The translations under genes were made by a program, and so were the position numbers. This document shows positions 26,786 through 46,648 of a stretch of 64,000 nucleotides of DNA, piece after piece. The notes beneath the pieces were generated by a model. The model did not search any database, was not told where the DNA came from, and saw nothing but the letters and a program-made list of their open reading frames with translations. Location of the stretch: contig JAFGCU010000025.1 of assembly GCA_016932475.1 (NCBI GenBank), forward strand, positions 30,808-94,807, given 5' to 3'. Each line of letters opens with the position of its first letter. Position 1 is the stretch's first letter. The stretch is from Anaerolineales bacterium (lineage in GTDB: Bacteria; Chloroflexota; Anaerolineae; Anaerolineales; RBG-16-64-43).

Positions 26786-27190
26786 ATGATCAAGAGAAGA
26801 AAATCCCGCCGCGGCACAACAGCTCAAACCACGCAATTCGCCAAAATACTCAGAACTTCCATGACCCCCGCGGAGCGCTTGTTGTGGTCCCGGCTCCGGC
26901 GAAATGCCACAGGTGTTCACTTCCGGCGGCAAGCTCCCCTTGGAAAATTTATCCTCGATTTCTACTGCGCCAAATCCAAATTGGCGGTCGAAGTGGATGG
27001 CGATATCCATGTTAATCAAACCGGCCATGATAACGAACGATCGGAATGGCTCAATTCACAAAAACAAATTCGCGTTCTTCGTGTCACGAATAAGGAAATT
27101 ATAGAGAATATGGATGGCGTAATAATGTATATACTTCAGGAATTGGCATCCGCCCCCTCCCTTCCCTCCCCCGCCAAAAAGATCCCTTGA
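26786..27190 (+). CDS. DUF559 / Vsr-like endonuclease
   Basis: AKILRTSMTPAERLLWSRLR, FRRQAPLGKFILDFYC, LAVEVDGDIH, DNERSEWL, VLRVTN; AT-richer than neighbours. Confidence 0.92.
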   Translation: MIKRRKSRRGTTAQTTQFAKILRTSMTPAERLLWSRLRRNATGVHFRRQAPLGKFILDFYCAKSKLAVEVDGDIHVNQTGHDNERSEWLNSQKQIRVLRVTNKEIIENMDGVIMYILQELASAPSLPSPAKKIP

Positions 27191-27460
27191 CGGGGGAGGG
27201 TTACCCGCGGGAATCCTCCCCCGTTAGCCATACTTGGTTTTTTTACTTACGGGCGAGAATGTTGCAGAAGAATCCTCCCCCGTTAGCCGCATTCGATTTT
27301 TAGCTGGAGGGGGGGCTGGGGAGGCTGATGCGTAAGAATCCTCCCCCGTTAGCCGCTCCTGGTTTTTGGCTAACGGGGGAGGACAGAGGAGGGGGTCTGC
27401 CGGCTTTTAAAAAAAACCTCCCCCGCTGGTTGCCATAATCTCTTGGCAAACGGAGGAGGG
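27153..27460. repeat. Downstream hairpin array: left module, three units and a terminal degenerate hairpin
   Basis: Units at about 27211, 27268, 27334; 27318-27395 matches 26692-26769 at 77 of 78 nt. Confidence 0.92.
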
Positions 27461-27493
27461 AATAATGGAAGCCAAGCATATTCTTGCGATAGA

Positions 27494-28654
27494 CTACTTC
27501 GGCGCGGATCGCGCCAGCCATTCTCGGATCGTATTGGCGAGCGTCTCCAGCCGCGCCCGGTCCCCCTCCTGCGCGGCTTGCAGCGCGTCCGAAATTTCTT
27601 CGAACCGCTCCTCCATACGGTTAAGTTTCTCCGCGACTTTGGTGAATTTACGATCCCGTTCGCGCCACTCGTCTTCCCAGGTGAGGTTCTGCGCGGTCCA
27701 CCGCTTCTGATCGTCCGCCAGAAAAGTGGTCCAATCCTGGCGCAGACGGTCCTCCTGAATACGCTGGATTTCCGCCATCTCCTTGAACTTCTGCTCCATG
27801 CGGTCGGAAAGGCTGTGGTATTCGTCAATCGACTGGCGCATCGAGCGCTGGAGTTCCTGAAAACCCTCTACCTGTTTGAGGAAATCCGCCATCCGGGCGA
27901 TTGAATCCGCGCTGCGTTTCTCCAAGTCTTTCCATTGCCGTTCGCGTTCCACCAGGGCCGAGGTTTGTTGCTCCTGCCAGATGGCCATAGCATTGCGGCG
28001 CTCGAGTTCCAGCGCCATAAGTTCCGCCAGCCGTCCATCGTTCCGCCGGCCGGCGGATTCAACCGCATCCAATCGGGCGGAGTTCTCGCTGCCCATTTCG
28101 CGGATCGCCTGCTGCTCCCCCTGGACGTCCGCCATGCGGCGGATATCCTGCCGCCGGCCTTCCTCCACCGCGGCCATGATCCGGGTCCGCTCTTCGTCCC
28201 GCTTCTGGACCATCTCCAGGGTCTTGCGCATCTCCTGCAACAGAATCGCCTGGCGCGCCTGTTCGGATTTTCGGGCTTCCATCGATTCCTGCAAGTCTCC
28301 GAGCAGTTCGATCTGTTTCTTGAATTCGCCGATCGTTTTATCGACCCGGTTTTTTTCGATCGTACGCGACCGTCCGGCCTGCTCCTCGAGCTCCAGGCGC
28401 CGTTTGTCCATCGAGTCCAGCGCGCGGGCGGTGTCTTCGCGATGTTTGGAGATCAGCTCGTCGATCTTCTGCGGCTGGATGCGGGTGTTCATCTTCGTCA
28501 GCTGCGAACTGGCATCCTGCAGCTGCTTGGCCTGAGATCCCACCACGCCGGTCAGGTTTGCCAACCGCTCCTCAAGCTTCGCCAGCAGCGCCTTGTCTTT
28601 CCGGCGCTCCTCATCCAGCCAATCCACCCGGTTTTTCAGGTCTTCTCCTGCCAT
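27494..28654 (-). CDS. Long coiled-coil hypothetical protein
   Basis: 386 aa, E/K/R/Q-rich heptad pattern; TATAAT and GGAG upstream. Confidence 0.8.
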   Translation of the reverse strand: MAGEDLKNRVDWLDEERRKDKALLAKLEERLANLTGVVGSQAKQLQDASSQLTKMNTRIQPQKIDELISKHREDTARALDSMDKRRLELEEQAGRSRTIEKNRVDKTIGEFKKQIELLGDLQESMEARKSEQARQAILLQEMRKTLEMVQKRDEERTRIMAAVEEGRRQDIRRMADVQGEQQAIREMGSENSARLDAVESAGRRNDGRLAELMALELERRNAMAIWQEQQTSALVERERQWKDLEKRSADSIARMADFLKQVEGFQELQRSMRQSIDEYHSLSDRMEQKFKEMAEIQRIQEDRLRQDWTTFLADDQKRWTAQNLTWEDEWRERDRKFTKVAEKLNRMEERFEEISDALQAAQEGDRARLETLANTIREWLARSAPK

Positions 28655-28710
28655 GGAATTCTCCCGCCGGGATTATACCCGGCGCGTGTTTGCTCCCGCC
28701 CGTGATCGAA

Positions 28711-29769
28711 TCAGCGGGAAGTGAAGGCGAGCCGCTTCAAGACCGATTCGAGCGCTGTCACGGACCGTTCGAATTCGCCCAGATCAATCCGTTCCTCCGG
28801 AGTATGATCCAGGGTCGAATCGCCCGGTCCATACACCGCCATCGGACAGTTCCATTCCGGCCCAACGACATTGATATCCGATGTTCCAAGCTTGAGGCTG
28901 AACGATGGATTTCCGCCCTGGGCGCGAATCGCGGCCAAGAGCGCGCCGACAACGGGTGTGTTCTTTTCCACCCGGTAGGCGGGCACCGGCATGCCCTCGA
29001 TTCGCAGTTCCCCCGCCCCTTCCGTGGCTTCCCGCATGAATCGTTCCGCTTGTTCCGGCGGAATGGATTGTGGAAGCCTGAGATGGCCTCCCATTTCGGC
29101 GGTCTCCGTGAATCCGTCGCCGGATGTCGACATTTTTTCCAGCACCGGCGTGATCTGGGCAAATTTCCGTTCGGCGCCGCCGTTTTCCCGCACGGCGGTT
29201 GCCACCAGCCTGTTCCAGAAACCCACCGCCGTTTCGCATGCGCTTTCCTGGCCGGCCGCGGTGTGTCCGATGGTATGCCGCGCCCGGAACCGGAAACGGG
29301 TTATTCCACGGTACCCGAGCGTGATCCGGTCCCATCCGCTCGGCTCGCCGATCAGCGCGTACCGGGGATGATACCGGCCCGCCGCATGACGCGCCCCGGC
29401 GGAATCCCCTTCCTCATCGACCGCGCCGATCACCACCACCTCCCAGCCGGGGATCGCGCCGCTGCGCGCCGCGGCATCCACAAACGCCGCCAGCGGACCT
29501 TTCGCGTCCACCGATCCGCGTCCATGCAGAACTCCGCCCTCCATACGAACGTCGATCCGGCCGGGAACCGTATCGATGTGCCCGAGCAGCACGATCTGGT
29601 TCGGGCCGTCGCCGATCCTCCCGACCGCATTCCCGGCTTCGTCGGCATCGGCCGAGGTGAAGCCCAGCGAGCGCATGTGCGCCACCAGCCAAGCGACGGC
29701 TTCGCCTTCCTGGCCGGTTGGGCTGTAGCGCTCGACCAATCCGAGCAGCGTTGCAGACGGTTGTGTCAT
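28711..29769 (-). CDS. lysK: [LysW]-lysine/[LysW]-ornithine hydrolase (M20 family)
   Basis: [43 protein letters not shown]; last gene of LysW operon. Confidence 0.9.
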
Positions 29770-30013
29770 TTTCCTGCCCGTCCTCCATATTCAAGATGAA
29801 TGCCGGATGCATCCCGGGCTGGCTTCCCTTCGGGTTAATCATATCCGAAATCCGCCCGCTCCCCTCAGCAACCCATCCCCCATTTCCCCCGTGGGACGGG
29901 ATAATTTTCAGATCGGAAGTCCGTATTTGCCGCACCCTTTTCCCTCTTGAACACGCATCGATAACACTCCGTAATTTGTAATTTGGGAGGATTCTTCGCG
30001 AGGTGAAATCAGC

Positions 30014-31942
30014 TTATCCAGGGGTTGATTTGCCGCCCGCCTTCAGGTGCGCAATCAATCCGCCGGCCTCCAAGAGCGCCCTCACGTTCGGCGGAAAGGG
30101 CGGATAGGGGAAGACGCCCTTTGGGAGGATCACCTCGCCGCGCGCCAGATCCACTTTGACCGGATCGCCCTTTCGCGCGGCGGCCACAGCCTCCGGGCAT
30201 ACGATCGCCGGCAGCCCCTGGTTGATTGCGTTGCGGTAGAAAATGCGCGCAAAGGATTCGGCCACCACCGCGCGGACGCCGCGCCCCTTCAGGCAGGTGA
30301 CCGCCTGTTCGCGGGATGATCCGCAGCCCATATTTCTTCCCGCAAAGACGACATCACCCGGTTTGGATGAGGGTACAAAATCCGGATCGAGGTCCTCCAG
30401 CGCGTGCGCGGCGATTTCCCCGGGGGTCCGCAGTGTATACGTATATTTGCCCGGGAAAAGTTGATCGGTGTTGACGTTGTCGCCGTAGACCCAGGCGGAT
30501 CCGTCGGCGTTATAGGGTGAGGGCTTCCCGGCCGGTTTTCCCGGAGAAGTGTTTTTTTCGCCGCGCCCGGCGCGCAGATCGGTCCCCCGCAGTAGTTGTA
30601 GAAATCCGGAGGCGGATTCCGGCGAGTCGACGCCGAATTCCTCCGCGGTGGGAATTCTGCCCAGCAATGCCCCGAGCGCGACCAACGCCGGCGAGCCCAG
30701 ATAAATTTCCGCGTCCGGCTGCCCCATGCGGCCCTTGAAATTCCGGTTGGCGGTGGAGAGAACGACCTCGCCCGCGGCGGGTATTCCGAGATGGTTGCCC
30801 ATGCACGGGCCGCAGCCCGGGACTCCGATCATCGCGCCCGCATCCAACAGCGTTGCAATCACACCTTCCTGCACCGCCGCGCGGTAGATCTCCGCCGACG
30901 CCGGAATGACCAGGAAGCGCGTTCCGGCATGGACTTTCTTTCCGGAAACGGTTTTCGCCGCCGCGCGCAGGTCCTCCAGGCGCCCGTTGGTGCAGGTGCC
31001 GACGAAGGCCATGTCGATCGGGCGGCCGGCCGCTTCCGCGAGAGTCCGCCGCCGATCGACTCCGTGCGGCGCGGCGACAAGCGGGCCGATCGCGGCAAGA
31101 TCGATTTCATACTCCGCCAGATACTCCGCGCCCGGATCCGCCGTGAGCGCCAAAGAAACGCAATCCTCTCGCCGCGCGCGGCCCGACGGGCGGGAAGCGA
31201 GATAATCGAAGACCGCATCATCCGGCGCGAGAAACGCGTTCTTCACGCCGAACTCGGCCATCATATTCGGGATGACCATCCGGCTGTCGATCGAAAGCGA
31301 GCGCAGTCCCGGTCCGTCGAATTCGACCGACAGGTACAACCCGCCGCCAGCCCCCAGTTCGCCGATGACGGCCAAGCATAAATCCTTCGAGGTCACGCCG
31401 GGGCGTAAATTTCCCCGCAGCGTGATGTGGACGCTCTGAGGCACCCGCAGCCACAGCTTGCCGGCCGCCCACAGCGCCGCCGCCTCGCTGCGGCCGATCC
31501 CGGCCCCGAACGCGCCCATCCAGCCGTGATGGGTGGTGTGGCTGTCCGCGCCAAGGATGACTTGGCCGGGCAGGAGCAGCGCTTCCTCGCCGACCACCTG
31601 GTGGCAGATCCCCCGTCCGATGTCGAAAAAATCCCGGACTCCCTGCTCGCGCGCGAAGGCCCGCGCTTCGGCATGGTTTTGGGCGTGCTTGGTCGTGGGC
31701 GGCGGGGAGGCGTGATCCAGGACGATCACCAGGCGCGAAGGATCGTGCACCTTCCGCGCGCCGAGTTCTTTGTGGAAAATCTGGGCGATGGCGGCGGTGT
31801 TATCGTGCGAGAGGATCCGGTCCGGGCGCGCCTCGAGGATCTCGCCGGCGCGGGCGTCGGCCGCGCCGGCCGCGCGGGCCAGCGCCTTTTCGGCGAACGT
31901 GCGCGCCTGTCCCGCGACGTGCGCAGGTTCGATCTTGATCAT
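30014..31942 (-). CDS. Homoaconitase / isopropylmalate-isomerase-type hydratase, large and small subunits fused
   Basis: TFAEK, LDH, GICHQ, GADSHT, GTCTNG, PGCGPC, NRNFKGRMG then GDNVNTDQLFP, GCGSSRE, FARIFYRNAINQG in a single frame; start uncertain. Confidence 0.9.
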   Translation of the reverse strand: MIKIEPAHVAGQARTFAEKALARAAGAADARAGEILEARPDRILSHDNTAAIAQIFHKELGARKVHDPSRLVIVLDHASPPPTTKHAQNHAEARAFAREQGVRDFFDIGRGICHQVVGEEALLLPGQVILGADSHTTHHGWMGAFGAGIGRSEAAALWAAGKLWLRVPQSVHITLRGNLRPGVTSKDLCLAVIGELGAGGGLYLSVEFDGPGLRSLSIDSRMVIPNMMAEFGVKNAFLAPDDAVFDYLASRPSGRARREDCVSLALTADPGAEYLAEYEIDLAAIGPLVAAPHGVDRRRTLAEAAGRPIDMAFVGTCTNGRLEDLRAAAKTVSGKKVHAGTRFLVIPASAEIYRAAVQEGVIATLLDAGAMIGVPGCGPCMGNHLGIPAAGEVVLSTANRNFKGRMGQPDAEIYLGSPALVALGALLGRIPTAEEFGVDSPESASGFLQLLRGTDLRAGRGEKNTSPGKPAGKPSPYNADGSAWVYGDNVNTDQLFPGKYTYTLRTPGEIAAHALEDLDPDFVPSSKPGDVVFAGRNMGCGSSREQAVTCLKGRGVRAVVAESFARIFYRNAINQGLPAIVCPEAVAAARKGDPVKVDLARGEVILPKGVFPYPPFPPNVRALLEAGGLIAHLKAGGKSTPG

Positions 31943-32052
31943 GAAACCTGCGCGATCACGCAGCGGGGCGGCCTTTTCCGCGCCTGCCCTCGGCGCGGTC
32001 TTTCGCCGGGGGAAATGCGCAGGTTCGCATTTGGTCTTGGAACCTGCGCGAT
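31920..32052. repeat. Pair of gcgcaggtt..aacctgcgc hairpins
   Basis: Hairpins at 31921-31953 and 32016-32049 separated by a GC-rich spacer. Confidence 0.7.
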
Positions 32053-32064
32053 CATGAAGCGGGA

Positions 32065-33369
32065 TCACTTAACCTGCTCCTTGCGGGGCGGTTCCTCATC
32101 CAGGCGCTGGACAATCCGTTTGCGCGTCGATTCGGGCAGCAGGAGTTTCGGCAGCTTATATTCCTCGGTGGCGATCGAAAGCAGGAGCTCGGCCGGCGAC
32201 TGGTCGGCGTCGATCTGGTACACGCGCTCCTTGAACCGGGCGGTGATGTCGCGCGCCGTGGCTTCGTCCAGCCGGAAGTAGTGGATCTCCTTGAGGAAGT
32301 AGTGGATCGTGTTCCACCCGGAGAGCGGCCCGAGCAGGATATCCCGCTCGCTGACCCCGAACACATCCAGCGGATGCGCCTCGTAGGTGCTGGAGTCGTT
32401 GAGGATCGCGCCCTGGTGCACGCCGGCGGTGTGAGTCCGGTTGGTGAGCGAAATCGGTTCCTTGGGCGGCACGAGCATGCGCAGCTTGTCGGCCGCGAGC
32501 ACGTTGATCGGGTACGATCCGCGCAGGTGATACCCCTCCAGCGCGTCGTAGTTCTGGTCGAGGTGCAGGTTGAACATCAATGCGGTCATCGAGGTGATGC
32601 CGGAGCGTTCGCCGATCCCGAGCAGCGTGGTGTTGACGTAACGCACGCCTTCGCGAAGGGCTTCCATCGTATTGGAGAGCGCATACCCGCGGTCGTCGTG
32701 GAAGTGCACCTCGAACTCGGTGACCGGATAGCGCTCGCGCAGCGCGCGCAGGCGCTGGCTGACCGTCGGCGGCGTGGCCACCCCGACCGTATCGGGCAGC
32801 CCGAGCCGGTCCACCAGCGCCGCCACCTGATCGTACACCAGGAACTGATCCTCCAGCCGGGTGCGGAACGTATCCTCCCCGCTGAACCGCAGGACCAGGT
32901 TGGGATGATTCCGGCGCAGGTCTTCCAGCAGCGCGCGGGCCCGGCGGGCGATCTCCTCCAGGTCCTTGCCGGTGTTGAACGTGCGGGATTGCGGCGAGGT
33001 GCCGATATATATGTTCAGCCCGTCGAACCCGGCCTGGATCGCGGCTTCCACATCGTCCGGATGGCAGCGTACGTGCGCCAGCAGGAAGGTGTATCCCTTC
33101 TGGGTTACCAGCTCGTCGCGCATCTGCTGAATCGCCTTGAAATCCTCGCGCTCCTGCGGGCTGACCATGGGCGAGAACATCTCGATGAACTTCACCCCGT
33201 ACAGGATCAGCGCGCGGATCATTTCCAGCTTGTCGCGCTCGGTGTAAAAATATTTGTGATGGTCGTGCAGCAGGGACGTCTGCTGGCCTTCGCGCAGAGT
33301 CGTGTCGATGATCTCAAGCTTCCTGGGATGATACAAACGGTAACGGTCCTGGTTCTCCGTGACGTTCAT
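32065..33369 (-). CDS. Homocitrate synthase-like DRE-TIM enzyme
   Basis: IIDTTLREGQQ, LRFSGEDTFR, LPDTVG, HFHDDRG, GIGERSGI, HTAGVH; no C-terminal regulatory domain; context next to homoaconitase. Confidence 0.85.
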   Translation of the reverse strand: MNVTENQDRYRLYHPRKLEIIDTTLREGQQTSLLHDHHKYFYTERDKLEMIRALILYGVKFIEMFSPMVSPQEREDFKAIQQMRDELVTQKGYTFLLAHVRCHPDDVEAAIQAGFDGLNIYIGTSPQSRTFNTGKDLEEIARRARALLEDLRRNHPNLVLRFSGEDTFRTRLEDQFLVYDQVAALVDRLGLPDTVGVATPPTVSQRLRALRERYPVTEFEVHFHDDRGYALSNTMEALREGVRYVNTTLLGIGERSGITSMTALMFNLHLDQNYDALEGYHLRGSYPINVLAADKLRMLVPPKEPISLTNRTHTAGVHQGAILNDSSTYEAHPLDVFGVSERDILLGPLSGWNTIHYFLKEIHYFRLDEATARDITARFKERVYQIDADQSPAELLLSIATEEYKLPKLLLPESTRKRIVQRLDEEPPRKEQVK

Positions 33370-33383
33370 GGCTATTGTCACTC

Positions 33384-34556
33384 CTACTCGGCGTGGCGTT
33401 GTGCCAGCACGGCGGCGATTTGCTCCGCCACCGTGTCCAACTGGGGCTGGGTGATCACGAGCGGGGGCAGCAGCCGGATCACGTTGAGCCCGGCGGGAAG
33501 CACAAGCACCCCGCGCTCGGCCAGCGCCGCGATGTAGGGCGTGGCTTTCTGTTTGAGCTCAATTCCCACCATCAATCCAAGTCCTCTTACCTCACGGATG
33601 AGCGGCGAGCCGATGGCGCGCAGCTTGGCCGCCAGATTCGCCCCCAATGCGGCGGCTTTTTCCGCCAGCCGCTCTTCTTCATACGCATCCAGGGCGGCCA
33701 GCGCCGCTGCGCTCGTAACCGGGTTCCCGCCGAAGGTGTTGGCGTGAATGGCGGGTTCGAGCTGTCGGATGCGCTCGCCGATCACGATTGCCCCCATCGG
33801 GATCCCGCCGCCGATCGACTTGGCCAGCGCAAGGAGATCCGGCCGCAGGCCGTAATGCTGGTAGGCGAACATCTTCCCGGTCCGGCAAAAACCGGTTTGG
33901 ACCTCGTCGAGGATGAGCAGGGCGCCTTTTTCTCGGCAGATCTCCTGCGCGCCGCGCAGGAACTCGGGGGTCCCCGGATACACGCCGCCCTCTCCTTGGA
34001 CCACCTCCAGGATCACACCGGCGGTTTTTTCGCTCACCGCCGCGCGCAATTCTTCAAGATTATTGTACGTCACATGCTGGAAGCCCGGCACAAGCGGAAG
34101 GAAGGCATCGCGGTACTTTTTATTCCAGGTGGCCGAGAGCGCGCCCATCGTCCGGCCGTGGAATCCGCGCTTGGCCGCGACAAATTCGGTCCGGCCGGTG
34201 GCGTATCGGGCCAGCTTCAACGATCCCTCCACCGCTTCCGCCCCCGAATTGCACAGGAACACCCGGTTGAATCCTTCGCCGGCCGCCTCGACAAGGCGCT
34301 GCTCGAGTTCCGCGCGCCCGGCGTAATAGAACATCTCGGTGCAGGTGATCAAGGTTTGCACCTGCTCGGTGACCGCCTTGACGACGGCCGGGTGGCAGTG
34401 GCCGAGGTTGGCCGATCCCTGCCCGGCGACGCAATCGATGTACTCGCGCCCGGTTTCATCCCACACCAGCGCCCCCTGCCCGCGCACGAGCGCGATCGGC
34501 CGCTTGACGTACAAGCCGGAGGTAAATTTGTTTTCCCGCTCGATGGTATTGGTCAT
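33384..34556 (-). CDS. lysJ: [LysW]-aminoadipate/glutamate semialdehyde transaminase (class III)
   Basis: [38 protein letters not shown] lysine, NTFGGNP. Confidence 0.9.
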
Positions 34557-34572
34557 AGGGTCCTCGTATCTT

Positions 34573-34682
34573 TCCTAACCCCCGCTCCCCCGGCCCCTCT
34601 CCCCCTTCCCCGTAAAGGGAAGGGGGAGAGGGGTGCCTGAGACCCGGCGGTCTGCCGGGACGAATGCGGGGTGAGGGGGTTA
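34573..34682. repeat. CCCTC-family palindromic element at carB/lysJ junction
   Basis: cccctctcccccttccc-cgtaaa-gggaagggggagagggg inner stem; cctaaccccc / gggggttagg outer arms overlapping carB stop. Confidence 0.8.
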
Positions 34683-37600
34683 GGACGGTTTCTTCTCCTG
34701 CAACCGAAAATGCTCCTGCAAACTCCGGTACTTCAACGCTTTTTCCCGCATCGCGCGGATGCCCATTACGGCCGCGGCCGCGGCCGAAAGCGTGGTCAGC
34801 AACGGCACGTTCATCACGGTCGCGGCGGCGCGGATGAGGTTCCCGTCGCTGTGCGCGTTCGGCCCGAGCGGCGTGTTAAGCACCAATTGCACCTTCCCTC
34901 CGCGAACCAGATCCACCACGTTCGGCGATCCATGCCCCACCTTGAACGCCGGCTCGACCGGCAGCCCGGCGTGCATGAAGAAAGCCGCCGTGCCGGGGGT
35001 GGCGCACAGGTGGAACCCCATCCGGTGCAGATCGCGGGCGACTTTAAGCGCCGCGCCTTTGTCGAAATCATTGACGCTGAATAGCGCCGCGCCCTGTTCC
35101 GGCAGCGCGGATCCGGCCGCCATCTCCGCCTTGGCGAAGGCATGCCCGAAATGGCTGGCATGCCCCATCACTTCGCCGGTCGAGCGCATTTCCGGCCCGA
35201 GGAGAGAATCCGCTCCGGGGAGCTTCTGGAACGGCAGCACCGCTTCCTTGACGAAGAAGCCGTCCACTTCAGGCTGCTTGAAGATTCCGATATCCGCAAG
35301 CGACTGCCCGGCCATGATCTGGGCCGCGCGGCGCGCGAGCGGCACGCCGATCGACTTGCTCACGTAGGGGATCGTCCGCGACGCGCGCGGATTGACCTCG
35401 AGCACGTAGACCACTTCATCCTTGATCGCCAGTTGAACGTTCATCAGCCCGCGCACGTTCAACCGCTGGCCGAGTTTTTCGGTGTATTCCCGCATCGTGC
35501 TGAGATGGAAGGCGCTGATCTTGTACGGCGGCAGCACGCAGGCCGAATCCCCCGAGTGCACGCCGGCTTCCTCGATATGCTGCATGATCGCCGCCACCAC
35601 CGTCCGCTCGCCGTCGGAGATCGCATCCACATCCGCTTCGTAGGCGTCCTCGAGGAAGCGGTCGACCAGCAGCGGCTGTCCCGGGGCGGCGGCCAGCGCC
35701 GCGTGGACAAACCCTTCCAGCTGGGCTTCGTCTCCGACGATCGCCATCGCGCGCCCGCCCAGCACGAACGAGGGCCGCACCAGCAGCGGATACCCGATCC
35801 GTTCCGCGATCGTCCGCACTTCTTCCTGCGAATGGGCGATCCCATGCTCCGGTTGGGGGATGTCGAGTTCCTCGAGCACGGCCGCGAACCGCTGGCGGTC
35901 CTCCGCCAGCGCGATCGCATCCGGCGAGGTGCCCCAGATCGGGACTCCCGCCGCGGCCAGGTCGGCCGAAAGGTTGAGCGGTGTCTGCCCGCCGAACTGC
36001 ACGATCACGCCGGCCGGCTTCTCGCGCTCCACAACATTTAACACGTGTTCGAGCGTGAGGGGCTCGAAATACAGCCTGTCCGCCGTGTCGTAATCGGTCG
36101 ATACGGTTTCCGGATTGCAATTGAGCAGGATCGTTTCGTATCCCAGCTCGCGCAGCGCGAATACCGCCTGGCAGCAGCAATAATCGAATTCGACTCCCTG
36201 CCCGATCCGGTTCGGCCCGCTGCCGAGAATTAACACTTTCGGCCTCGGCGTGACCCGCGCCTCATCTTCGGTTTCGTAAGAGGAATAGAGATACGGAGTC
36301 TGCGCCTCGAATTCCGCCGCGCACGTATCCACCCGCAGGAAGGTCGGCCGGATGCCGAGCGCCAGCCTGCGCGCGCGCACTGCCGCGGCAACCGGCGTTT
36401 TGCCATCCGTGGCCAACAGGCGCGCCAGCCGCGAATCCGCCAGGCCGGCTTGCTTTGCCCGGCGCAGCAGATCCGCCGTCAGCGTTTCCAGCGTCTGCGC
36501 GGAAATTTCTTTTTCGAGTTCGGCGATCCCGCGCATCTGATCCAGGAACCAAAGATCCATCCCGGTCAGGGCGGAAATTTTCTTCAAATCGGCGCCGTCG
36601 CGGATGGCCCGGTAAACCTCGAACAGGCGGCCCGAAACCGGGGCGTGGAGCGCCTCAAGATCGGCGGCGGTTTTCTTTTTGCCGGGTACAAGCTTGTTCG
36701 GTCCCGATCCGTCCAGCGCGTCGATTCCGCTTTCGAGTGAGATCACCGCCTTGGAGAGCGCCTCGGGGAACGTCCGTCCGAGCGCCATGACTTCGCCGAC
36801 CGATTTCATTTGCGCCCCGAGCGTCGGATCCACGCCCGGGAATTTTTCGAACGCCCAGCGCGGGATCTTGACCACCACGTAATCCAGCGAGGGTTCGAAC
36901 CCGACCTTGGTCTGGCCGGTGATGTCGTTGGTGATCTCATCGAGCGTATAGCCGACGGCGACCAGCGCCGCGACCTTGGCGATCGGGAAGCCGGTGGCTT
37001 TGGAAGCCAGCGCCGAGGAGCGCGAGACACGTGGATTCATCTCGATCACCAGCGCCCGCCCGTCGGCCGGATTGACCCCAAACTGCACGTTCGACCCGCC
37101 CGTCTCGATCTCCACCGCGCGCATCACCCGCCGCGCCAGATCGCGCAGGACCTGGTACTCGCGGTCGGTGAGGGTCTGGGAGGGCGCGACGGTGATGCTG
37201 TCGCCGGTGTGCACCCCCATCGGATCCAGGTTCTCGATGCTGCATACGACGACGAAGTTATCCGCCCGGTCGCGCATCACCTCGAGTTCGAATTCCTTCC
37301 ATCCCAGGACGGATTCTTCCAGCCAGGCCTGCCCGATCGGCGAGACGGCGATCGCCTTGCGCACCGCCTCCGGAAGTTCCTCCGCCGAGTTCACCCACGA
37401 GGCGCCGGTGCCGCCGAGCGCGAAAGAGGCGCGCACCAATACCGGGAAGCCGGTTTGGTCCGCCAGCACCTTCGCCTCCTCGAGGTTGTGCGCCGGCCCG
37501 CCGTGCGGAACCGGAATATCATTTTCCCGCATGGCCCGGTTGAATTGCTCGCGGTCTTCGGCCAGTTCGATCGAGCGCAGCGGCGCGCCGAGGAGCTGGA

Positions 37601-37937
37601 CATGATATGCATCCAGAATCCCGCGCTTTCCGAGCGCAAGCGCCAGGTTCAACCCGGTCTGCCCGCCGACGGTGGGAAGCAGCGCGTCGGGCCGCTCCTG
37701 GGCGATGATCGCCTCGAGCGTCTCCGGCGTGAGCGGTTCGATATAGGTCGCGTCGGCGAGGTCCGGATCCGTCATGATCGTGGCCGGATTGGAATTGACC
37801 AGGATCACCCGGTATCCTTCGGCCCGCAGGGCTTTGATCGCCTGCGTGCCGGAATAGTCGAATTCCGCCGCCTGGCCGATGATGATCGGACCGGAGCCGA
37901 CGACCAATATGGAGCGGATGTCGGTTCGCCTGGGCAT
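34680..37937 (-). CDS. carB: Carbamoyl-phosphate synthase large subunit
   Basis: [17 protein letters not shown], duplicated ATP-grasp halves, [18 protein letters not shown] domain. Confidence 0.98.
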
Positions 37938-37938
37938 C

Positions 37939-39069
37939 TTATGAGTCCCGCCTTTCGATCAGCGCGAAGAACCGGTCGAACACGTCGCGGGCGTCGTGCG
38001 GCCCGGGCGAGGCTTCGGGGTGGAACTGCACACAGAACACCGGCTTCTTCGTCAGCCGGAAACCTTCGAGCGAGCCGTCGTTCAGCGAACTCAGCGTGAC
38101 CTCCGCCTCACCCGCCGGGAGGCTGTCGGCCTCGACGATGTAATTGTGATTCTGCGCGGTGATCCAGACCTGCCCCGTGCGTTCGTCGCGGACGGGGTGG
38201 TTGCCGCCGTGATGGCCGAATTTCAGTTTGGTGATCCGCCCTCCGAGCGCGAGCCCGATCAGCTGATGCCCGAGGCAGATCCCCAGCGTCGGCACGCCGC
38301 TTTCCAGCAGCGCCCGCACGGTTTCGACGATTTTCGGCAACCCGCGCGGATCCCCCGGGCCGTTGGATAGGAAGATTCCGTCCGGCTTCAGCGCGAGCGC
38401 TTTCTTCGCCGGCGTGTTGGAAGGAACCACGCTGACCCTGGCCCCGTCCGCCGCCAGGTGGCGGAGGATGTTCTTCTTGATCCCGAAATCGTAGGCGACG
38501 ATATGCTTTCCCTTCATCGCACCCGCACCGCCGCTCTCCACCCACCGGCTGCCCGGATCGTCCGCCCAGGCATATTCCTCCGGGCAGGAGATCTCGCTGA
38601 CCATGTCGCGCCCGTCAAGCCCGGTCCATGCGCGCGCCATTTCAACCAGCTTCGCCGAATCGGTGCCGCGGGTGGAAAGCGCCGCCTTCTGCGTGCCGCC
38701 GTCGCGGAGCTTGCGGGTCAGGTAACGGGTATCCACCCCGCTGATCCCGGGCACGCCGGCTTCCGCGAGCCAGTCCGGAAGCGGCTTCTCCGCGCGCCAG
38801 TTGGATACCGCCGGGCTGACCGCGCGCACGACCGCCGCCGAAATCTGCGGGCAGGCGGATTCGTAATCCTCGCGGTTGACGCCGACGTTGCCGATGTGCG
38901 GGCAGGTGAACAGCACGCCCTGCCCGCGATAAGAGGGATCGGTGAGGATCTCCTGATATCCGGTCAGGCTGGTGTTGAACACCAGTTCAAAGACGGCGTC
39001 GGTCTGCGCGCCGAACGGTGTTCCGTGCAAAACGGTTCCGTCTTCGAGGGCGAGGGTGCTCAGACTCAC
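37939..39069 (-). CDS. carA: Carbamoyl-phosphate synthase small subunit
   Basis: [36 protein letters not shown]. Confidence 0.98.
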
Positions 39070-39869
39070 GAGATGACCGTGCCTTTCCCGGCCAGGGCCG
39101 ATGAAATCGGCGCGGGGATCCGGCTGTCGGCGAAGATCACCCGCTGCACGCCTTCCCCGAGCGCTTCGCCCGCGCCGAGGACCTTTTTCTTCATCCGCCC
39201 TTCGGCGAATTTCAACGCCTCTTCCAGTTTGGAGCGCTCGATCTTCGGCATCAGCGTGCTCTCATCGGGGAAGCGGCGCATCAATCCGGGCACGTTGGTC
39301 AGGATCACCAGGCTTTCCGCTTTGAGCGCGCCGGCGATCATCGCCGCCGCGCGGTCGGCATCGACGTTGAGCGCGACTCCTTCCGGAGAAATCGCCAGCG
39401 GCGCGACGACCGGAGTGAGCCCCGCGCGGATCAGCATGTGCAGGAGCGGAGCATCGACGGCCTGGATCGTTCCGGTGTGATCGTCGTGCAGCAGCCGAAC
39501 CCGCCCGTTTTCCACGGCGCGCACGGCCTCTTTGCGCTTGGCCTGCATCATGCGGCCGTCCACACCCGAAAGTCCGAAGGCATTCACGCCGAGCTTCTGC
39601 AGCCGCTCGACGAGGATCGTGTTGATCTTGCCGGATGTGACCATCGCGAAAATTTCCAGCGTCTCGCGGTCGGTGAAGCGCGAGGTGAACCCGGAGGGCG
39701 ATGTGATGAATTTCGGGGGATGGCCGAGCTTCTCGGAGACCGCGTTCGTCTCTTCCGATCCGCCGTGGACAAGCACGGCCTCCTGCCCGGATCGGACGAG
39801 CTTCGCGAGATCCTCGCAGACCGTATCCATGTTGTTCCCGGCGGCTCCGCCGATTTTTACGACAAGCAT
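39066..39869 (-). CDS. lysZ: [LysW]-aminoadipate/glutamate kinase
   Basis: [36 protein letters not shown]. Confidence 0.93.
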
Positions 39870-39916
39870 ATCTATCTCCTTCCTCGCCCCCCAACCCCTG
39901 TAGCCCCCCAACCCCT

Positions 39917-39945
39917 GTAGGGGCGACCCAGTGGGTCGCCCCTAC
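39917..39945. repeat. GTAG-tagged REP-like palindrome at lysY/lysZ junction
   Basis: gtag-gggcgaccca-g-tgggtcgccc-ctac, overlapping the lysY stop codon. Confidence 0.85.
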
Positions 39946-40988
39946 TAAATCGGATGCAATCCCGAGAATTCCAGTCCGGCCGTCTCTTCGAACCCGAACA
40001 TCACGTTCATCGCCTGGACGGCGGATCCCGAGGCGCCCTTCATCAAATTGTCGATCGCCGCCATCGCGACGATCCGTCCCGTATCCGGGTCGAGTTCGAA
40101 GCCCACATCCACATAATTGCTGCCCGCCAGGATTTTCGGATCCGGCACCCGGTGCACGCCGGTCTTTTCCTTGACGATGCGGATGAACGGCTCCTCCTTG
40201 GCGAACCCCCGGAACGCGCGCCACAAATCCTTTTCGGTGACGCCCGGCTTGGCGAAGCAGTGCGCCGCCGCCAGCGCGCCGCGGACCAGATCGACGGAGG
40301 TGATGGTCAGGTGCACATCCGGCAGATTCAACTCCTGGATCACCTCGGCGGTGTGCCGGTGGCCGGAAGGGGCGTACGTGCGGATCACGCTCGACCGTTC
40401 CGGATGGTGCGAGCCGGCGTTCGGGCTGGCCCCCCCTTCGGAGGACCCGACCTTGACATCGACGATGATCGGGCGCGCCGGGTCGATCAGCCCGCCGCGC
40501 ACCAGCGGCGCGAGCGCCAGGTTGGCCGCGGTCGCGTTGCACCCCACCCCGCTGATGTATTTCGCCGTGGGCATTTCCCCACGGTGGAATTCCGGCAACC
40601 CGTACACGAATTTGCCTATCCATTCCGGCGCCTGGTGGTCCAGCTTGTACCATTTCTTATAGAGCGCCGGATCCTTCAGGCGGAAATCCGCCGACAGGTC
40701 GACGATCTTCCCGGCCAGCTCCGCATAACGCCCGATTTCCTTTTGCGCCTCCCCGTGCGGCAGGGCGAGGAACAGGACATCGCACGGCTGCAGCACCTGG
40801 CGCGAGACGAATTGCATCGCCGTCCGCTTGCGCAGGTTCGGGTGCATCGAATAGACGTATTCACCGACGTGCCGCTCCGATGTCGCCTGGATCACCTCGA
40901 CCTGCGGGTGGCCGAGCAACAGGCGCAGCAATTCGCCGCCGGTGTATCCGGAGGCGCCGACGATCCCGGCTTTCCTTTTTTCGCTCAT
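39945..40988 (-). CDS. lysY: [LysW]-phosphoaminoadipate/glutamyl-phosphate reductase (ArgC-like)
   Basis: [56 protein letters not shown]. Confidence 0.95.
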
Positions 40989-41896
40989 TTTAGAATCTCC
41001 ATAATCGCCGCGTGCGGCACCGGGTTGTACTGTGCGCGGAATTCGTCCTTTTTCTTCCCCACCTCGATGGTGTAGTCGATCACAAATCCGGGGATGTCGA
41101 TCCCGGTGGCCGGGACCGAGGTGTGGAACTCCATCGTGTGGTTGACCTCGTTGACCAGGTATCCGCGATCCTTGTCCTCGAGGATGTCCACCGCCAGTAC
41201 GCCCCCGCCGACGGCCCGCGCCGCGGCGACGCAGATCCTGTCCAGATCGGGCGTCACCGGGCAGGCCGAGCCCTGCCCGCCGCGCGCGGTGTTGGTGATC
41301 CAATGCTCCGACGTGCGGTAGATCGCGGCGATCGTACGGTCGCCGACGACAAACGCGCGGATGTCGCGTCCCGGCTTTTTGATGTATTCCTGGATGTAGA
41401 AGATATTCTGCTGGTAGTTGCCCAGCACTTCCCGGGCTTCGAGAATCGCCTCGGCCGCGTCGCGGTCGTTGATTTTGGAGACCATCCGGCCCCACGATCC
41501 GATGACCGGTTTGAGCACCACCGGATACCCCATCTCCTCAATCGCCGCCACGGCGCTTTCCGGCGTGAACGCGACCTTCACCTCGGGCTGGGGAATTCCC
41601 GCAAACTTGAGGGCCGCCGAAGTCCACAGTTTGTCGCCGCAGGTATCGGCCACCGCCGAGGTGTTGACCGTCGGAATGCCCCAGCCGTTGAGGATTTTGC
41701 AGGCGTACAAACCGCGCCCGTACGACAGGCTGCGTTCGAGCAGCACCGAGAGATGATCCCATTCCCCGGGATGATTGAGGTCGAACTTCGCCTCCCGGTC
41801 GTCGATTTTTTCGTAATCGGCCCCGCGCTTTTCAAGCGCCTCGAACAGCCATTTTTCCTCGATCCGCAACCGGGTCATCAACACGCCGATCTTCAT
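40985..41896 (-). CDS. lysX: LysW ligase (RimK-like ATP-grasp), LysX/ArgX family
   Basis: [51 protein letters not shown]. Confidence 0.95.
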
Positions 41897-41939
41897 CGCC
41901 GCCGCCTCTCCGCCTTCCGTGAAATCCGGTCCCGCATTC

Positions 41940-42107
41940 CTATTCGCCCCAGTCTTCGGCTTCTTTCGGCGCCAGGGTCAACTGGACGGGTTCGAGCGCC
42001 GTGAGCTCCAACTCGACTCCGCAATCCGGGCAGATGATAATTTCCCCCGTCTGCGCATCGTCCGGGATCGCCACTTCCGCTTCACACTCCGGGCATAGAC
42101 CTTTCAT
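41940..42107 (-). CDS. lysW: Amino-group carrier protein LysW, 55 aa
   Basis: CPECE..CPDCG zinc finger and C-terminal EDWGE. Confidence 0.97.
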
Positions 42108-42303
42108 TTCCATTCTCCTTTGGGGCGCGCTCCGGCGCGCCATGAATTTAATTCCTGCCGTGCGTCGATCGATTCGCACTATCTACATATACGTTTTTTA
42201 TGGATCACTCGGATTTCGTCAGCCATCCCTTCCTTCGATCCCAAAATTTTTTAACCTCCGCGAAATCCGCAGACGAGATTTCGGTTCGGTTGCATTTCCG
42301 GTT

Positions 42304-43677
<1,374 letters not shown>

Positions 43678-43701
43678 CGTCGTATCCTTCCCCGCCAGAC
43701 C

Positions 43702-43800
43702 TCTCCCACCTCCCCCTCGTTCCCCCTCCTCCCTCCCCGTAACGGGGAGGGAGGAGGGGGAAGTCCCGAGCGCAGCGAGGGATAGGGGGAGGTGGGAGGG
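43702..43800. repeat. CCCTC-family palindromic element at argG/argH junction
   Basis: Outer 15-bp stem ctcccacctccccct/agggggaggtgggag, inner 18-bp stem ccccctcctccctccccg-taa-cggggagggaggaggggg; inverted homolog at 52845-52952. Confidence 0.9.
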
Positions 43801-43806
43801 GTCTGG

Positions 43807-45066
<1,260 letters not shown>

Positions 45067-45137
45067 ACGCTTCTCCTTCTCTCCCGACCGGTTTCCCGTC
45101 ATCCGGCCGGCGCGGCCGGGTGCGGGCGCCTGTATAC

Positions 45138-45166
45138 AAAAAAAGCCCTCCGGGTGACGGAGGGCT
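45138..45166 (-). terminator. Intrinsic terminator inside the argG leader (attenuator)
   Basis: Minus strand agccctccg-tcacc-cggagggct followed by TTTTTTT, 72 nt upstream of argG start. Confidence 0.9.
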
Positions 45167-45211
45167 CTGAAATTTGGATCACCATGCTTGTCCGCGCTCG
45201 GCCAAGCGTAA

Positions 45212-45283
45212 TCAGCCCACCTTCCCGATTTCCGGGTGGATGAAAGGACGACGAGCGCGAGCCTTCAAAAGATTAGCATCCAT
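45212..45283 (-). CDS. Putative attenuation leader peptide [23 protein letters not shown] (23 aa)
   Basis: ATG 11 nt after the -10 box; three Arg codons in four (CGC GCT CGT CGT) plus two Lys; stop 45 nt before the terminator. Confidence 0.7.
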
Positions 45284-45294
45284 TACGAAGGTGA

Positions 45295-45323
45295 ATTTTA
45301 CCGGAGGTTGCATCCGATGTCAA
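45295..45323 (-). promoter_or_regulatory. Sigma70-type promoter of the arg/lys operon
   Basis: TTGACA (45323-45318), 17-bp spacer, TAAAAT (45300-45295). Confidence 0.85.
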
Positions 45324-45499
45324 GCCGCCGGGAGGATAATAAACCGAACATCATCCCCGAGTGCTCTTATCGGGGATCCATTATCTGGTTCCTGGATGCC
45401 CGACAAGTTCACCCTCGATTCGCAAGCATAGCCGCTCATAAACCCGGATCGAGCAGCTACGCTCCGCGAGGGCATGCTCGGGCATGATCTTCTCTCGAC

Positions 45500-46648
45500 T
45501 CAATTATCGCACCCGTGCTCCTCGCCCGCGTTGCACGGCGCGGTAAGCCAGATGTAGACGAGGAAGCTGTGTTCGTTACTTTTTACGACATAACCATCGT
45601 TCGCTGGATTGCGCGAAAGGTTTTCGGGTAGATAATTTTCTACCTTCCCCGCTCCATACCTTGCCGGCGTCACACCCGCTTCCACTCCGACGTACCATTC
45701 ACCGGGCAGATCCATCGGGACGTTGTCGATGTAGATGATCAAGCTGGTTATGCCATCGTCGAAAACGCTCACCCCGCCCGCAAAAAAGTTCATCACCCCG
45801 TTGACCACCTCGGTGCACGATCCTCTATCTCCACCAAGGCCGGGGCCTGAGTATTCAATGATGCACTGCCCAGGATACCCGATACTAGCATACGGCCCTC
45901 CTGCCGCGACCCCCCCGTACAGCGGGATTACCCGGCCCGAGCCGCCCCCGTTCGAATCCGGATCCCCCGCCAGTTTCAGGTACTGTGAAGGCAGGTCGGT
46001 CGTCCGCGGATCGGCTTTCAGGAAGTTAAAACCCGGGTGACTGGCGATAAAAGCGTCGATCTCCGCGCTGGTCCACAGCCCGGTATCGCCCTCGGCCGTG
46101 AAACCTTCCGGCGTCCAAGTTCCCAGCGACCACTTCTCTGGAAACATGAAGCGTAAGGGGTATTCATCCATTGGAGTGGTTATCCACCCAAGCCATTGTT
46201 CAGTTCTATCTGTTGGTTTTAACCATACCTTAATACTTTCACCAGTAATATGCCGGTACACCGTCTCGGTGTGAGTGATGCATTGCGCCTGCCGGTGATA
46301 GAACAGGCCGTTCTTCCGATAAGGGGAGCATTTCGGAAGAGCATTATCCGGCTGGTCGAGACCGATGCATACCTGCTCTTCGGTTTCGTAGGTGATTGTT
46401 CCCGGATAAGAGACGATCTCGACCACAATATCCACACCGCGGTGCTTGTCATCCTGTGTCACTACCACAGGATTCTCCGGCGCTGCTTTCTCAGCAATGA
46501 TAATATTAAATCCCCAATCTCCCCCGTCCGAATATGTAACTTTTCCCGTATCATTGCATCCGCCCCCTGTCTGCGCCCGGGCAACCATTTTTTCAGAGAG
46601 AAGGAGGTAAACAGAGAATAAAATAAAACAGGCAATTTTCTTTCTCAT
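45500..46648 (-). CDS. Exported Cys-rich hypothetical protein
   Basis: Signal peptide MRKKIACFILFSVYLLL..ARA, GGAGG 5 nt upstream, several Cys, AT-richer than genome. Confidence 0.75.
   Translation of the reverse strand: MRKKIACFILFSVYLLLSEKMVARAQTGGGCNDTGKVTYSDGGDWGFNIIIAEKAAPENPVVVTQDDKHRGVDIVVEIVSYPGTITYETEEQVCIGLDQPDNALPKCSPYRKNGLFYHRQAQCITHTETVYRHITGESIKVWLKPTDRTEQWLGWITTPMDEYPLRFMFPEKWSLGTWTPEGFTAEGDTGLWTSAEIDAFIASHPGFNFLKADPRTTDLPSQYLKLAGDPDSNGGGSGRVIPLYGGVAAGGPYASIGYPGQCIIEYSGPGLGGDRGSCTEVVNGVMNFFAGGVSVFDDGITSLIIYIDNVPMDLPGEWYVGVEAGVTPARYGAGKVENYLPENLSRNPANDGYVVKSNEHSFLVYIWLTAPCNAGEEHGCDN

Follow-up and report, generated by a model that had tools for sequence, protein, structure and literature searches.

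Arginine biosynthesis is the textbook case of control by a repressor, ArgR, and the locus described here raises the question of how this pathway is regulated in a bacterium of the order Anaerolineales (Chloroflexota) in whose genome no such repressor was found. The C-terminal domain of ArgR (PF02863) was absent from the source genome (61% G+C, 98% complete) and from all 41 genomes sampled in the order; the control search found it in 8 known reference genomes. The first-pass annotation of this DNA had proposed that an attenuator ahead of argG senses Arg-tRNA through a leader peptide, and the lack of argR fits this core inference. The comparison with related genomes supports it too, through conserved upstream ORFs with terminators, the absence of ArgR, and the predicted folds. 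Hence, we consider ribosome-mediated attenuation of transcription by a leader peptide, in response to the charging of arginine tRNA, the likely function of the element.

The window (the whole stretch of DNA analysed, 64,000 nt) contains, at 45138-45323 of the minus strand, the elements that had been listed from the sequence and in the same order: a TTGACA-17-TAAAAT promoter, an ORF of 23 codons, a terminator, and then argG (Table 1). All of them are present, which confirms the earlier observation. The promoter (45323-45295) is a near-consensus sigma-70 site that matches 11 of the 12 consensus positions, and it is the only such site on the minus strand within 27000-46500. The terminator is the only strong one on that strand in the same 19.5 kb, where no other strong promoter or terminator was seen. 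It lies around 45 nt beyond the leader stop codon and consists of AGAGCCCTCCG-TCACC-CGGAGGGCTTT followed by the T-tract, with an energy of -19.6 kcal/mol when folded alone. The leader ORF has three Arg codons, all of them CGY. The two complementarities described earlier are also real. The segment CGCGCTCG (45259-45252) matches CGAGCGCG (45200-45193) perfectly over 8 nt (CGCGCUCG/CGAGCGCG), the latter being part of hairpin B, which can also be written GCUUGGCCG-AGCG-CGGACAAGC. The segment GGTGGGCT (45221-45214) can pair with AGCCCTCC in the left arm of the terminator, with a single U.U mismatch (GGUGGGCU/AGCCCUCC).

Table 1. Features of the leader and of the genes behind it (positions in the window)
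Feature	Position	Strand	Remarks
-35 hexamer TTGACA	45318..45323	-	invariant in 12 of 12 leaders of genera g1 and g4
-10 hexamer TAAAAT	45295..45300	-	17-nt spacer to -35; ends 11 nt before the leader ATG
leader ORF	45212..45283	-	ATG at 45283; 23 codons and stop UGA
proposed regulatory codon block CGC GCT CGT CGT (R-A-R-R)	45248..45259	-	invariant among 12 sequences
hairpin A, CCCG-GAAAU-CGGG	45224..45236	-	within leader ORF; stem invariant, loop variable
proposed antiterminator 5' arm GGUGGGCU	45214..45221	-	last codons and first base of the stop codon
hairpin B, GCUUGG-CCG-AGCG-CGG-A-CAAGC	45186..45207	-	inside the proposed antiterminator helix; stems invariant
intrinsic terminator (putative attenuator)	45138..45168	-	11-bp stem, 5-nt loop, T7 tract; G+C-rich
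argG (argininosuccinate synthase)	43807..45066	-	first structural gene; ATG 45066; SD AAGGAG 45078-45073
argH	43677-42304	-	rest of the cluster spans 28711..43677
lysW	~42107-41940	-	
lysX/argX	41896-40985	-	
lysY/argC	~40976-39945	-	
lysZ/argB	39911-39066	-	
carA	39069-37939	-	
carB	37937-34680	-	
lysJ/argD	34556-33384	-	
homocitrate synthase	33381-32065	-	
homoaconitase (fused)	32068-30014	-	
M20 peptidase (lysK/argE-like)	29769-28711	-	

The leader is conserved among close relatives. Between the -35 box and the end of the terminator, identity is 74-88% to all 7 congeneric species and to 4 species from another genus of the same family, and the similarity stops where the terminator ends. The ATG, the 23-codon frame and the position of the stop are kept in all 12 sequences of these two genera; their indels are confined to the 5' end and the two spacers and never touch the ORF. 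The codons AAG-SCY-CGC-GCT-CGT-CGT, encoding K-[PA]-R-A-R-R, are invariant in the 12 sequences, and codons 2-7 and 13-19 vary freely. A DNA search across the family (21 species genomes) gave no new leader variants. A second match in one of the genomes (G014) lies inside a nuoM-like gene and was discarded as a chance hit.

In the more distant genomes of the order, whose ArgG proteins are 63-71% identical, the upstream DNA is no longer alignable. The layout can nevertheless be recognised: 25 of the 27 evaluable genomes, from 11 of the 13 families, have, ahead of argG, a short ORF whose Arg residues are clustered (mostly as R-x-R-R) and then a terminator, and in the two exceptions argG lies directly behind another gene. 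The first-pass annotation had named Arg-rich upstream ORFs in related genomes as the thing to look for, and these are indeed conserved, together with their terminators. The same layout, typically with R-x-R-R, is found in Bellilinea caldifistulae GOMI-1 (leader peptide MISISSELRFRRPLTDPFFHGMVGAFGVIQ, locus L050), Leptolinea, Anaerolinea, and Ca. Villigracilis, and examples from other families start with MFSSADPRSRRRSRRIRPLHSGEVG..., MDTLHVFAPRPRRKHT..., MFSFSRRSSRRFS..., and MNKQNIVSRLRRRTRT... When ORFs were taken regardless of residue, at loci that had been preselected for an Arg-motif ORF, arginine was the clustered residue in 19 of the 25 loci and every other residue in at most 2. We estimate that a single Arg cluster would arise by chance in roughly 5-10% of GC-rich ORFs of 23 codons, which is not significant alone. 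The layout is more than chance because the whole arrangement is conserved across genera and families. A pattern scan of metagenomes with AAGSCNCGCGCTCGTCGT found one true leader among 80 loci, the rest being chance matches in GC-rich DNA.

We then considered the choice of Arg codons, taking as the cluster the densest six-codon Arg window of each ORF in 24 lineages. The clusters hold 79 Arg codons, namely 48 CGT, 20 CGC, and 11 CGA, and none is CGG, AGA, or AGG. For comparison, 22 of the 47 Arg codons outside the clusters of the same ORFs are CGG or AGR, and in the long ORFs of the source genome CGT accounts for 10% of the Arg codons and CGG/AGR for 38%. This synonymous selection exactly at the cluster points to the sensing of codons and tRNA rather than to an effect of the peptide. 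The distinction matters for an alternative in which the product is an arrest peptide: R-x-R-R followed by P or K, and then ...HP...GKVG, would stall the ribosome via free arginine or through its polybasic nature, and the fate of the terminator would depend on this arrest instead of on hungry codons. Comparable cases would be the fungal arginine attenuator peptide, TnaC, and the +x+ macrolide arrest motifs. In favour of it, R-x-R-R recurs with striking regularity from family to family, often with P or K after it, and R/K-x-R/K is known to be prone to arrest in other leader peptides (PMC8632094, PMC12583479). However, the complete avoidance of CGG and AGR in the clusters is not predicted at the level of the peptide, and apart from the Arg cluster the peptides differ from family to family. 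The GKVG codons are invariant at their third positions too, which points to a constraint on the RNA. Arrest by the peptide is thus very improbable in our view.

The tRNA complement of the source genome is informative for the reading by codons. It has single genes for tRNA-Arg with the anticodons GCG, UCG, CCG, CCU, and UCU, and the 44 tRNA genes detected in the 98%-complete assembly do not include tRNA-Arg(ACG). Therefore, all three Arg codons of the leader should be read by tRNA-Arg(GCG), two of them by G.U wobble.

How the leader ORF is translated depends on its unusual start. The distance from the end of the -10 box to the start codon is 6-14 nt in 19 of the 23 recognisable promoters, and the Arg leader ORFs of these lineages, including the one at 45283-45212, have no Shine-Dalgarno sequence. 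Since the start codon is so close to the -10 box, the sensory ORF would be nearly leaderless, and its translation most probably begins at or very near the 5' end of the transcript. Lacking a Shine-Dalgarno sequence, its translation rests on leaderless initiation, which we assume here; both the start of transcription and the translation of the ORF are predictions from the DNA. The sequencing runs that match the window are DNA, or match only conserved pieces of argG from other organisms. Metatranscriptome contigs cover the leaders of Bellilinea and Anaerolinea at a depth of 2-7 and span the terminator; like those over the locus itself, they are too sparse to reveal where transcripts end. They may also stem from contaminating DNA, and one of them already begins over 100 nt ahead of the predicted start.

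The lack of a Shine-Dalgarno sequence would also be compatible with a leader that is a cis-acting RNA switch read by a protein, a small molecule, or a tRNA rather than by a translating ribosome, with an ORF that is incidental or modulatory. Such a switch would agree with the invariance, at the nucleotide level, of the stems of hairpin B, of GGUGGGCU, and of the terminator arms, and with the recurrence of the terminator stem GCCCUCC/GGAGGGC across many families. Yet no Rfam family was found at the gathering level in the window: the matches are at the level of the terminator and far below threshold, the best being Phe_leader (RF01859) with 21.7 bits for a gathering score of 55, restricted to the terminator part. 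A search for a T-box at 44000-46500 gave no match at E-values up to 10, with a method that picks up a T-box at another site of the genome. Between families, it is the RNA that diverges, whereas the ORF, the position of its start relative to the -10 box, and the cluster of Arg codons persist. Within the family, evolution preserves the frame. We thus consider a switch that works independently of the ribosome quite improbable, and return to the reading in which a translating ribosome senses arginine tRNA.

In classical attenuators, the ribosome decides between two competing structures. We modelled the stalled state with the ribosome on the last Arg codon, about 12 nt masked downstream of it, and the right arm of the terminator not yet made. 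The minimum-energy fold then contains a GG.GGGCU/AGCCC.CC helix around hairpin B in 10 of the 12 relatives, where GGUGGGCU (45214-45221) pairs with 45167-45160. When the ribosome is placed at the stop codon, only the terminator forms. The arm GGUGGGCU is invariant in the 12 sequences, third codon positions included, and the substitutions in hairpin B are confined to its tetraloop (AGCG, AGCA, AGUG, or CAUG). We saw no covariation for the antiterminator (GGUGGGCU with AGCCCUCC), since its arms never vary within the family, nor for the helix between regions 1 and 2 considered below. Across 25 lineages, the complementarity between the region behind the Arg codons and the left arm of the terminator is weakly above that of shuffled sequences (duplex energy, mean z -0.6, p<0.05 in 2 of the 25), and a permutation across loci gave p=0.12. 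By eye, individual cases look compensatory, for example AGCCC/GGGCU here and UUCGCCC/GGGCGAA in genus g2, but these are anecdotal. Masking of the candidate antiterminator arm by a ribosome at the stop codon does not suit all relatives equally, since the stop lies 15-29 nt beyond that arm in several of them. Hence, of the mutually exclusive structures that had been proposed from the sequence alone, the antiterminator appears in most stalled-state folds, but it lacks covariation and its complementarity is not significant in these tests. The identity of the antiterminator helix, as modelled, is the weakest link of the mechanism.

A second helix may involve region 1 (CGCGCUCG, 45259-45252), at the Arg codons, and region 2 (CGAGCGCG). 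It is intact in 9 of the 12 sequences, has a G.U pair in 1, and is mismatched in 2, and its variation falls in the tetraloop of hairpin B. The match of 8 nt between CGCGCTCG and CGAGCGCG is not significant on its own, and the fold of the RNA free of ribosomes is ambiguous, its outcome depending on the 5' end that is chosen. We keep this 1:2 'superattenuation' helix of the model only as a possibility.

Taken together, the attenuator would work as follows. Transcription would start a few bases before the leader ATG, and a ribosome loading on the (nearly) leaderless 5' end would trail the RNA polymerase. When Arg-tRNA is plentiful, the ribosome would pass CGC-GCU-CGU-CGU, reach the UGA stop, and cover GGUGGGCU; the hairpin AGAGCCCUCCG...CGGAGGGCUUU would then form and transcription would end at the T-tract and not reach argG. 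Under a shortage of charged tRNA-Arg, the relevant tRNA in the source genome being presumably the single GCG-anticodon species that reads CGU by wobble, the ribosome would stall at the CGY codons, which lie some 26 nt before GGUGGGCU. The free arm could then pair with AGCCCUCC in the left arm of the terminator, enclosing hairpin B and blocking the terminator. The polymerase would read through into argG, argH, lysWXYZ, carAB, lysJ and, in the source genus, the genes of homocitrate synthase and homoaconitase. The response to arginine itself is deduced from the codons and the layout.

The cluster behind the leader combines arginine, carbamoyl-phosphate, and alpha-aminoadipate-lysine genes around one LysW carrier set. 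The region 28711-45066 has just one LysW/X/Y/Z/J/K set, with argG, argH, carAB, the homocitrate synthase gene, and a fused homoaconitase gene mixed in among its members, an arrangement that suggests one carrier-protein pathway for both arginine and lysine. We infer that the genes from argG to the M20 peptidase are co-transcribed. Two gaps of the cluster, between argG and argH (43695-43806) and between carB and lysJ (34573-34685), hold very long near-perfect hairpins on the minus strand, each made of a C/T-rich and a G/A-rich arm without a T-tract (about -100 and -87 kcal/mol). They have relatives at about 11 and about 52 other sites of the genome, and because of this recurrence they look like a REP/MITE-like family of palindromic repeats. 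The genes behind the leader differ among relatives: argG alone, argG-argH, these with lysWXYZ-(carAB)-lysJK, or further with homocitrate synthase and homoaconitase. The only gene that is always there is argG, with argH present in some cases. In the source genus, the lysine and carbamoyl-phosphate genes appear to ride behind an arginine switch.

This gene content invites the question whether lysine is sensed as well, as the first-pass annotation had thought possible. The AAG codon two codons before the Arg block, which all 12 sequences of genera g1 and g4 share, would then add lysine sensing to match an operon that carries homocitrate synthase and homoaconitase besides the arg genes, and K adjoins the cluster in some other leaders. 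A single Lys codon would however be a weak sensor, and it fails to follow the lysine genes among relatives: one genome (G038) has homocitrate synthase and homoaconitase with a leader that lacks K, whereas the leaders of two others (G023 and G039) have K and no such lysine genes within reach. Therefore, dual sensing is not supported and we regard it as extremely improbable; the attenuator that we favour reads arginine.

In the source genome, argF (ornithine carbamoyltransferase) lies apart from the operon, on contig C70. The Arg-rich small ORF before it (minus strand, upstream of 38255), MEAKSPYPVLYLRRARGRRP with its stop, has CGG, CGC, and AGA codons and no terminator, and is probably a chance ORF. 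A genome-wide scan found no second Arg leader in the source genome. Across the order, argG itself was not found in 13 of the 41 genomes (E<=1e-50), including 5 of the 6 of genus g3 (G009, G012, G015, G017, G019) and genomes from several other families. These genomes could correspond to arginine auxotrophs or to incomplete assemblies.

Other leaders are present elsewhere in the source genome. On the minus strand of contig C57, at about 39150-39650 (locus L150), a near-leaderless leader peptide, MQSNLGFFFYAYFYGAPKAAVASR up to its stop, has a run of Phe/Tyr codons. The order is TTGACA-17-TAACAT, 10 nt, the ORF MQSNLGFFFYAYFYG... with its stop, a terminator, and an AroH-type chorismate mutase, with no Rfam match. 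We regard it as a candidate aromatic amino-acid attenuator. On the plus strand of contig C121, at about 6150-6650 (locus L151), the leader ORF MAIILLVVVIANLVLVLDGNHNYAWAALGEAS with its stop (MAIILLVVVIANLVLVL...) has an Ile/Leu/Val run and is followed by a terminator and ilvD, which makes it a candidate branched-chain amino-acid attenuator. Finally, contig C45 has, at 240-535 of locus L149, a T-box (RF00230, 88.2 bits for a gathering score of 93, E 2.5e-19) before a TrpB-like (type 2) gene. With two more leader peptides and a T-box, the sensing of tRNA charge by leaders would be a habit of this organism.

These results lead us to a wider proposal, which we hold with moderate confidence. In Anaerolineales lacking ArgR, arginine biosynthesis would be governed mainly by an undescribed family of leaderless leaders, 'argL', reading through rare CGU codons the charging of one tRNA-Arg isoacceptor (the decoders of CGY/CGA, GCG here). 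In the source genus, carbamoyl-phosphate and alpha-aminoadipate lysine synthesis would likewise be under arginine status. This makes a prediction for the source genus, that the genes of lysine (AAA pathway) and of carbamoyl-phosphate are co-regulated by the supply of arginine. It would also show how a core pathway is regulated in a large and mostly uncultured lineage. A cluster with only CGU, CGC, and CGA, and never CGG or AGR, offers a clean natural test of isoacceptor-specific sensing. These leaders further flag unannotated mini-genes that are missed by annotation pipelines. Full-text literature searches found no description of an Arg-codon attenuator of arginine biosynthesis, and an earlier description is possible; within these limits, the literature agrees with the initial statement that this mode is undescribed for bacterial arg genes. 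A survey of Actinobacteria reported no RNA element for arginine genes and cites arginine T-boxes in Firmicutes (PMC1262725).

How does this element, which is probably an arginine-specific leader-peptide attenuator with a leaderless start and isoacceptor-restricted codons, compare with known systems? Feedback control of arginine genes is exerted by ArgR/AhrC with ARG boxes and by Arg-specific T-boxes. The putative attenuator would fulfil the same physiological task in an order where ArgR is absent from the sampled genomes, at a locus with no T-box match. The classical examples of leader-peptide attenuation are trp, his, leu, thr, ilv, and phe, and to our knowledge arginine is missing from the amino acids known to use it. 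An attenuator that reads Arg codons, spread through an order of Chloroflexota without ArgR, would fill this gap. The classical enterobacterial cases (trpL, hisL, leuL, thrL, ilvL/ivbL, and pheL) have been summarised before (PMC9413887, 10.1101/834739). Like them, the leader studied here has a short ORF, clustered codons for the end product, an intrinsic terminator and a proposed competing upstream helix, and the position of the ribosome would decide termination. Unlike them, it concerns arginine, its ORF has no Shine-Dalgarno sequence and opens 6-14 nt behind the -10 box, and it has no relationship to the enterobacterial leaders in sequence or in Rfam. In Thermus thermophilus, a leader-peptide attenuator with Lys codons controls the lysine genes of the alpha-aminoadipate/LysW cluster. 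There too a leader-peptide element precedes a gene cluster of the LysW-type carrier protein in a non-proteobacterial lineage, but the leader of the present locus has Arg codons, is tied to argG, and has one AAG only instead of a run of Lys codons.

Two other upstream ORFs come close in the way they sense. In Salmonella, the pausing of ribosomes at consecutive Arg codons of orf34, in the speF leader, reports the supply of arginine and alters the folding of the mRNA (Ben-Zvi et al. 2019, PMC6386406). This ORF controls ornithine decarboxylase and polyamine synthesis via Rho termination and decay by RNase G (PMC6386406). Both leaders would read Arg codons of an upstream ORF, whereas orf34 does not act on arginine biosynthesis by way of an intrinsic terminator. 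In mycobacteria, leaderless polycysteine short ORFs act on translation by sequestration of the Shine-Dalgarno sequence (Canestrari et al., bioRxiv 10.1101/834739). These resemble the present leader in being leaderless sensory ORFs, rich in the codons for the amino acid of the pathway, that act in cis on the operon behind them, but the Anaerolineales locus differs in having a canonical intrinsic terminator after the stop codon. If our reading is correct, it would extend leaderless sensory ORFs from the translational control of mycobacteria to control based on a terminator.
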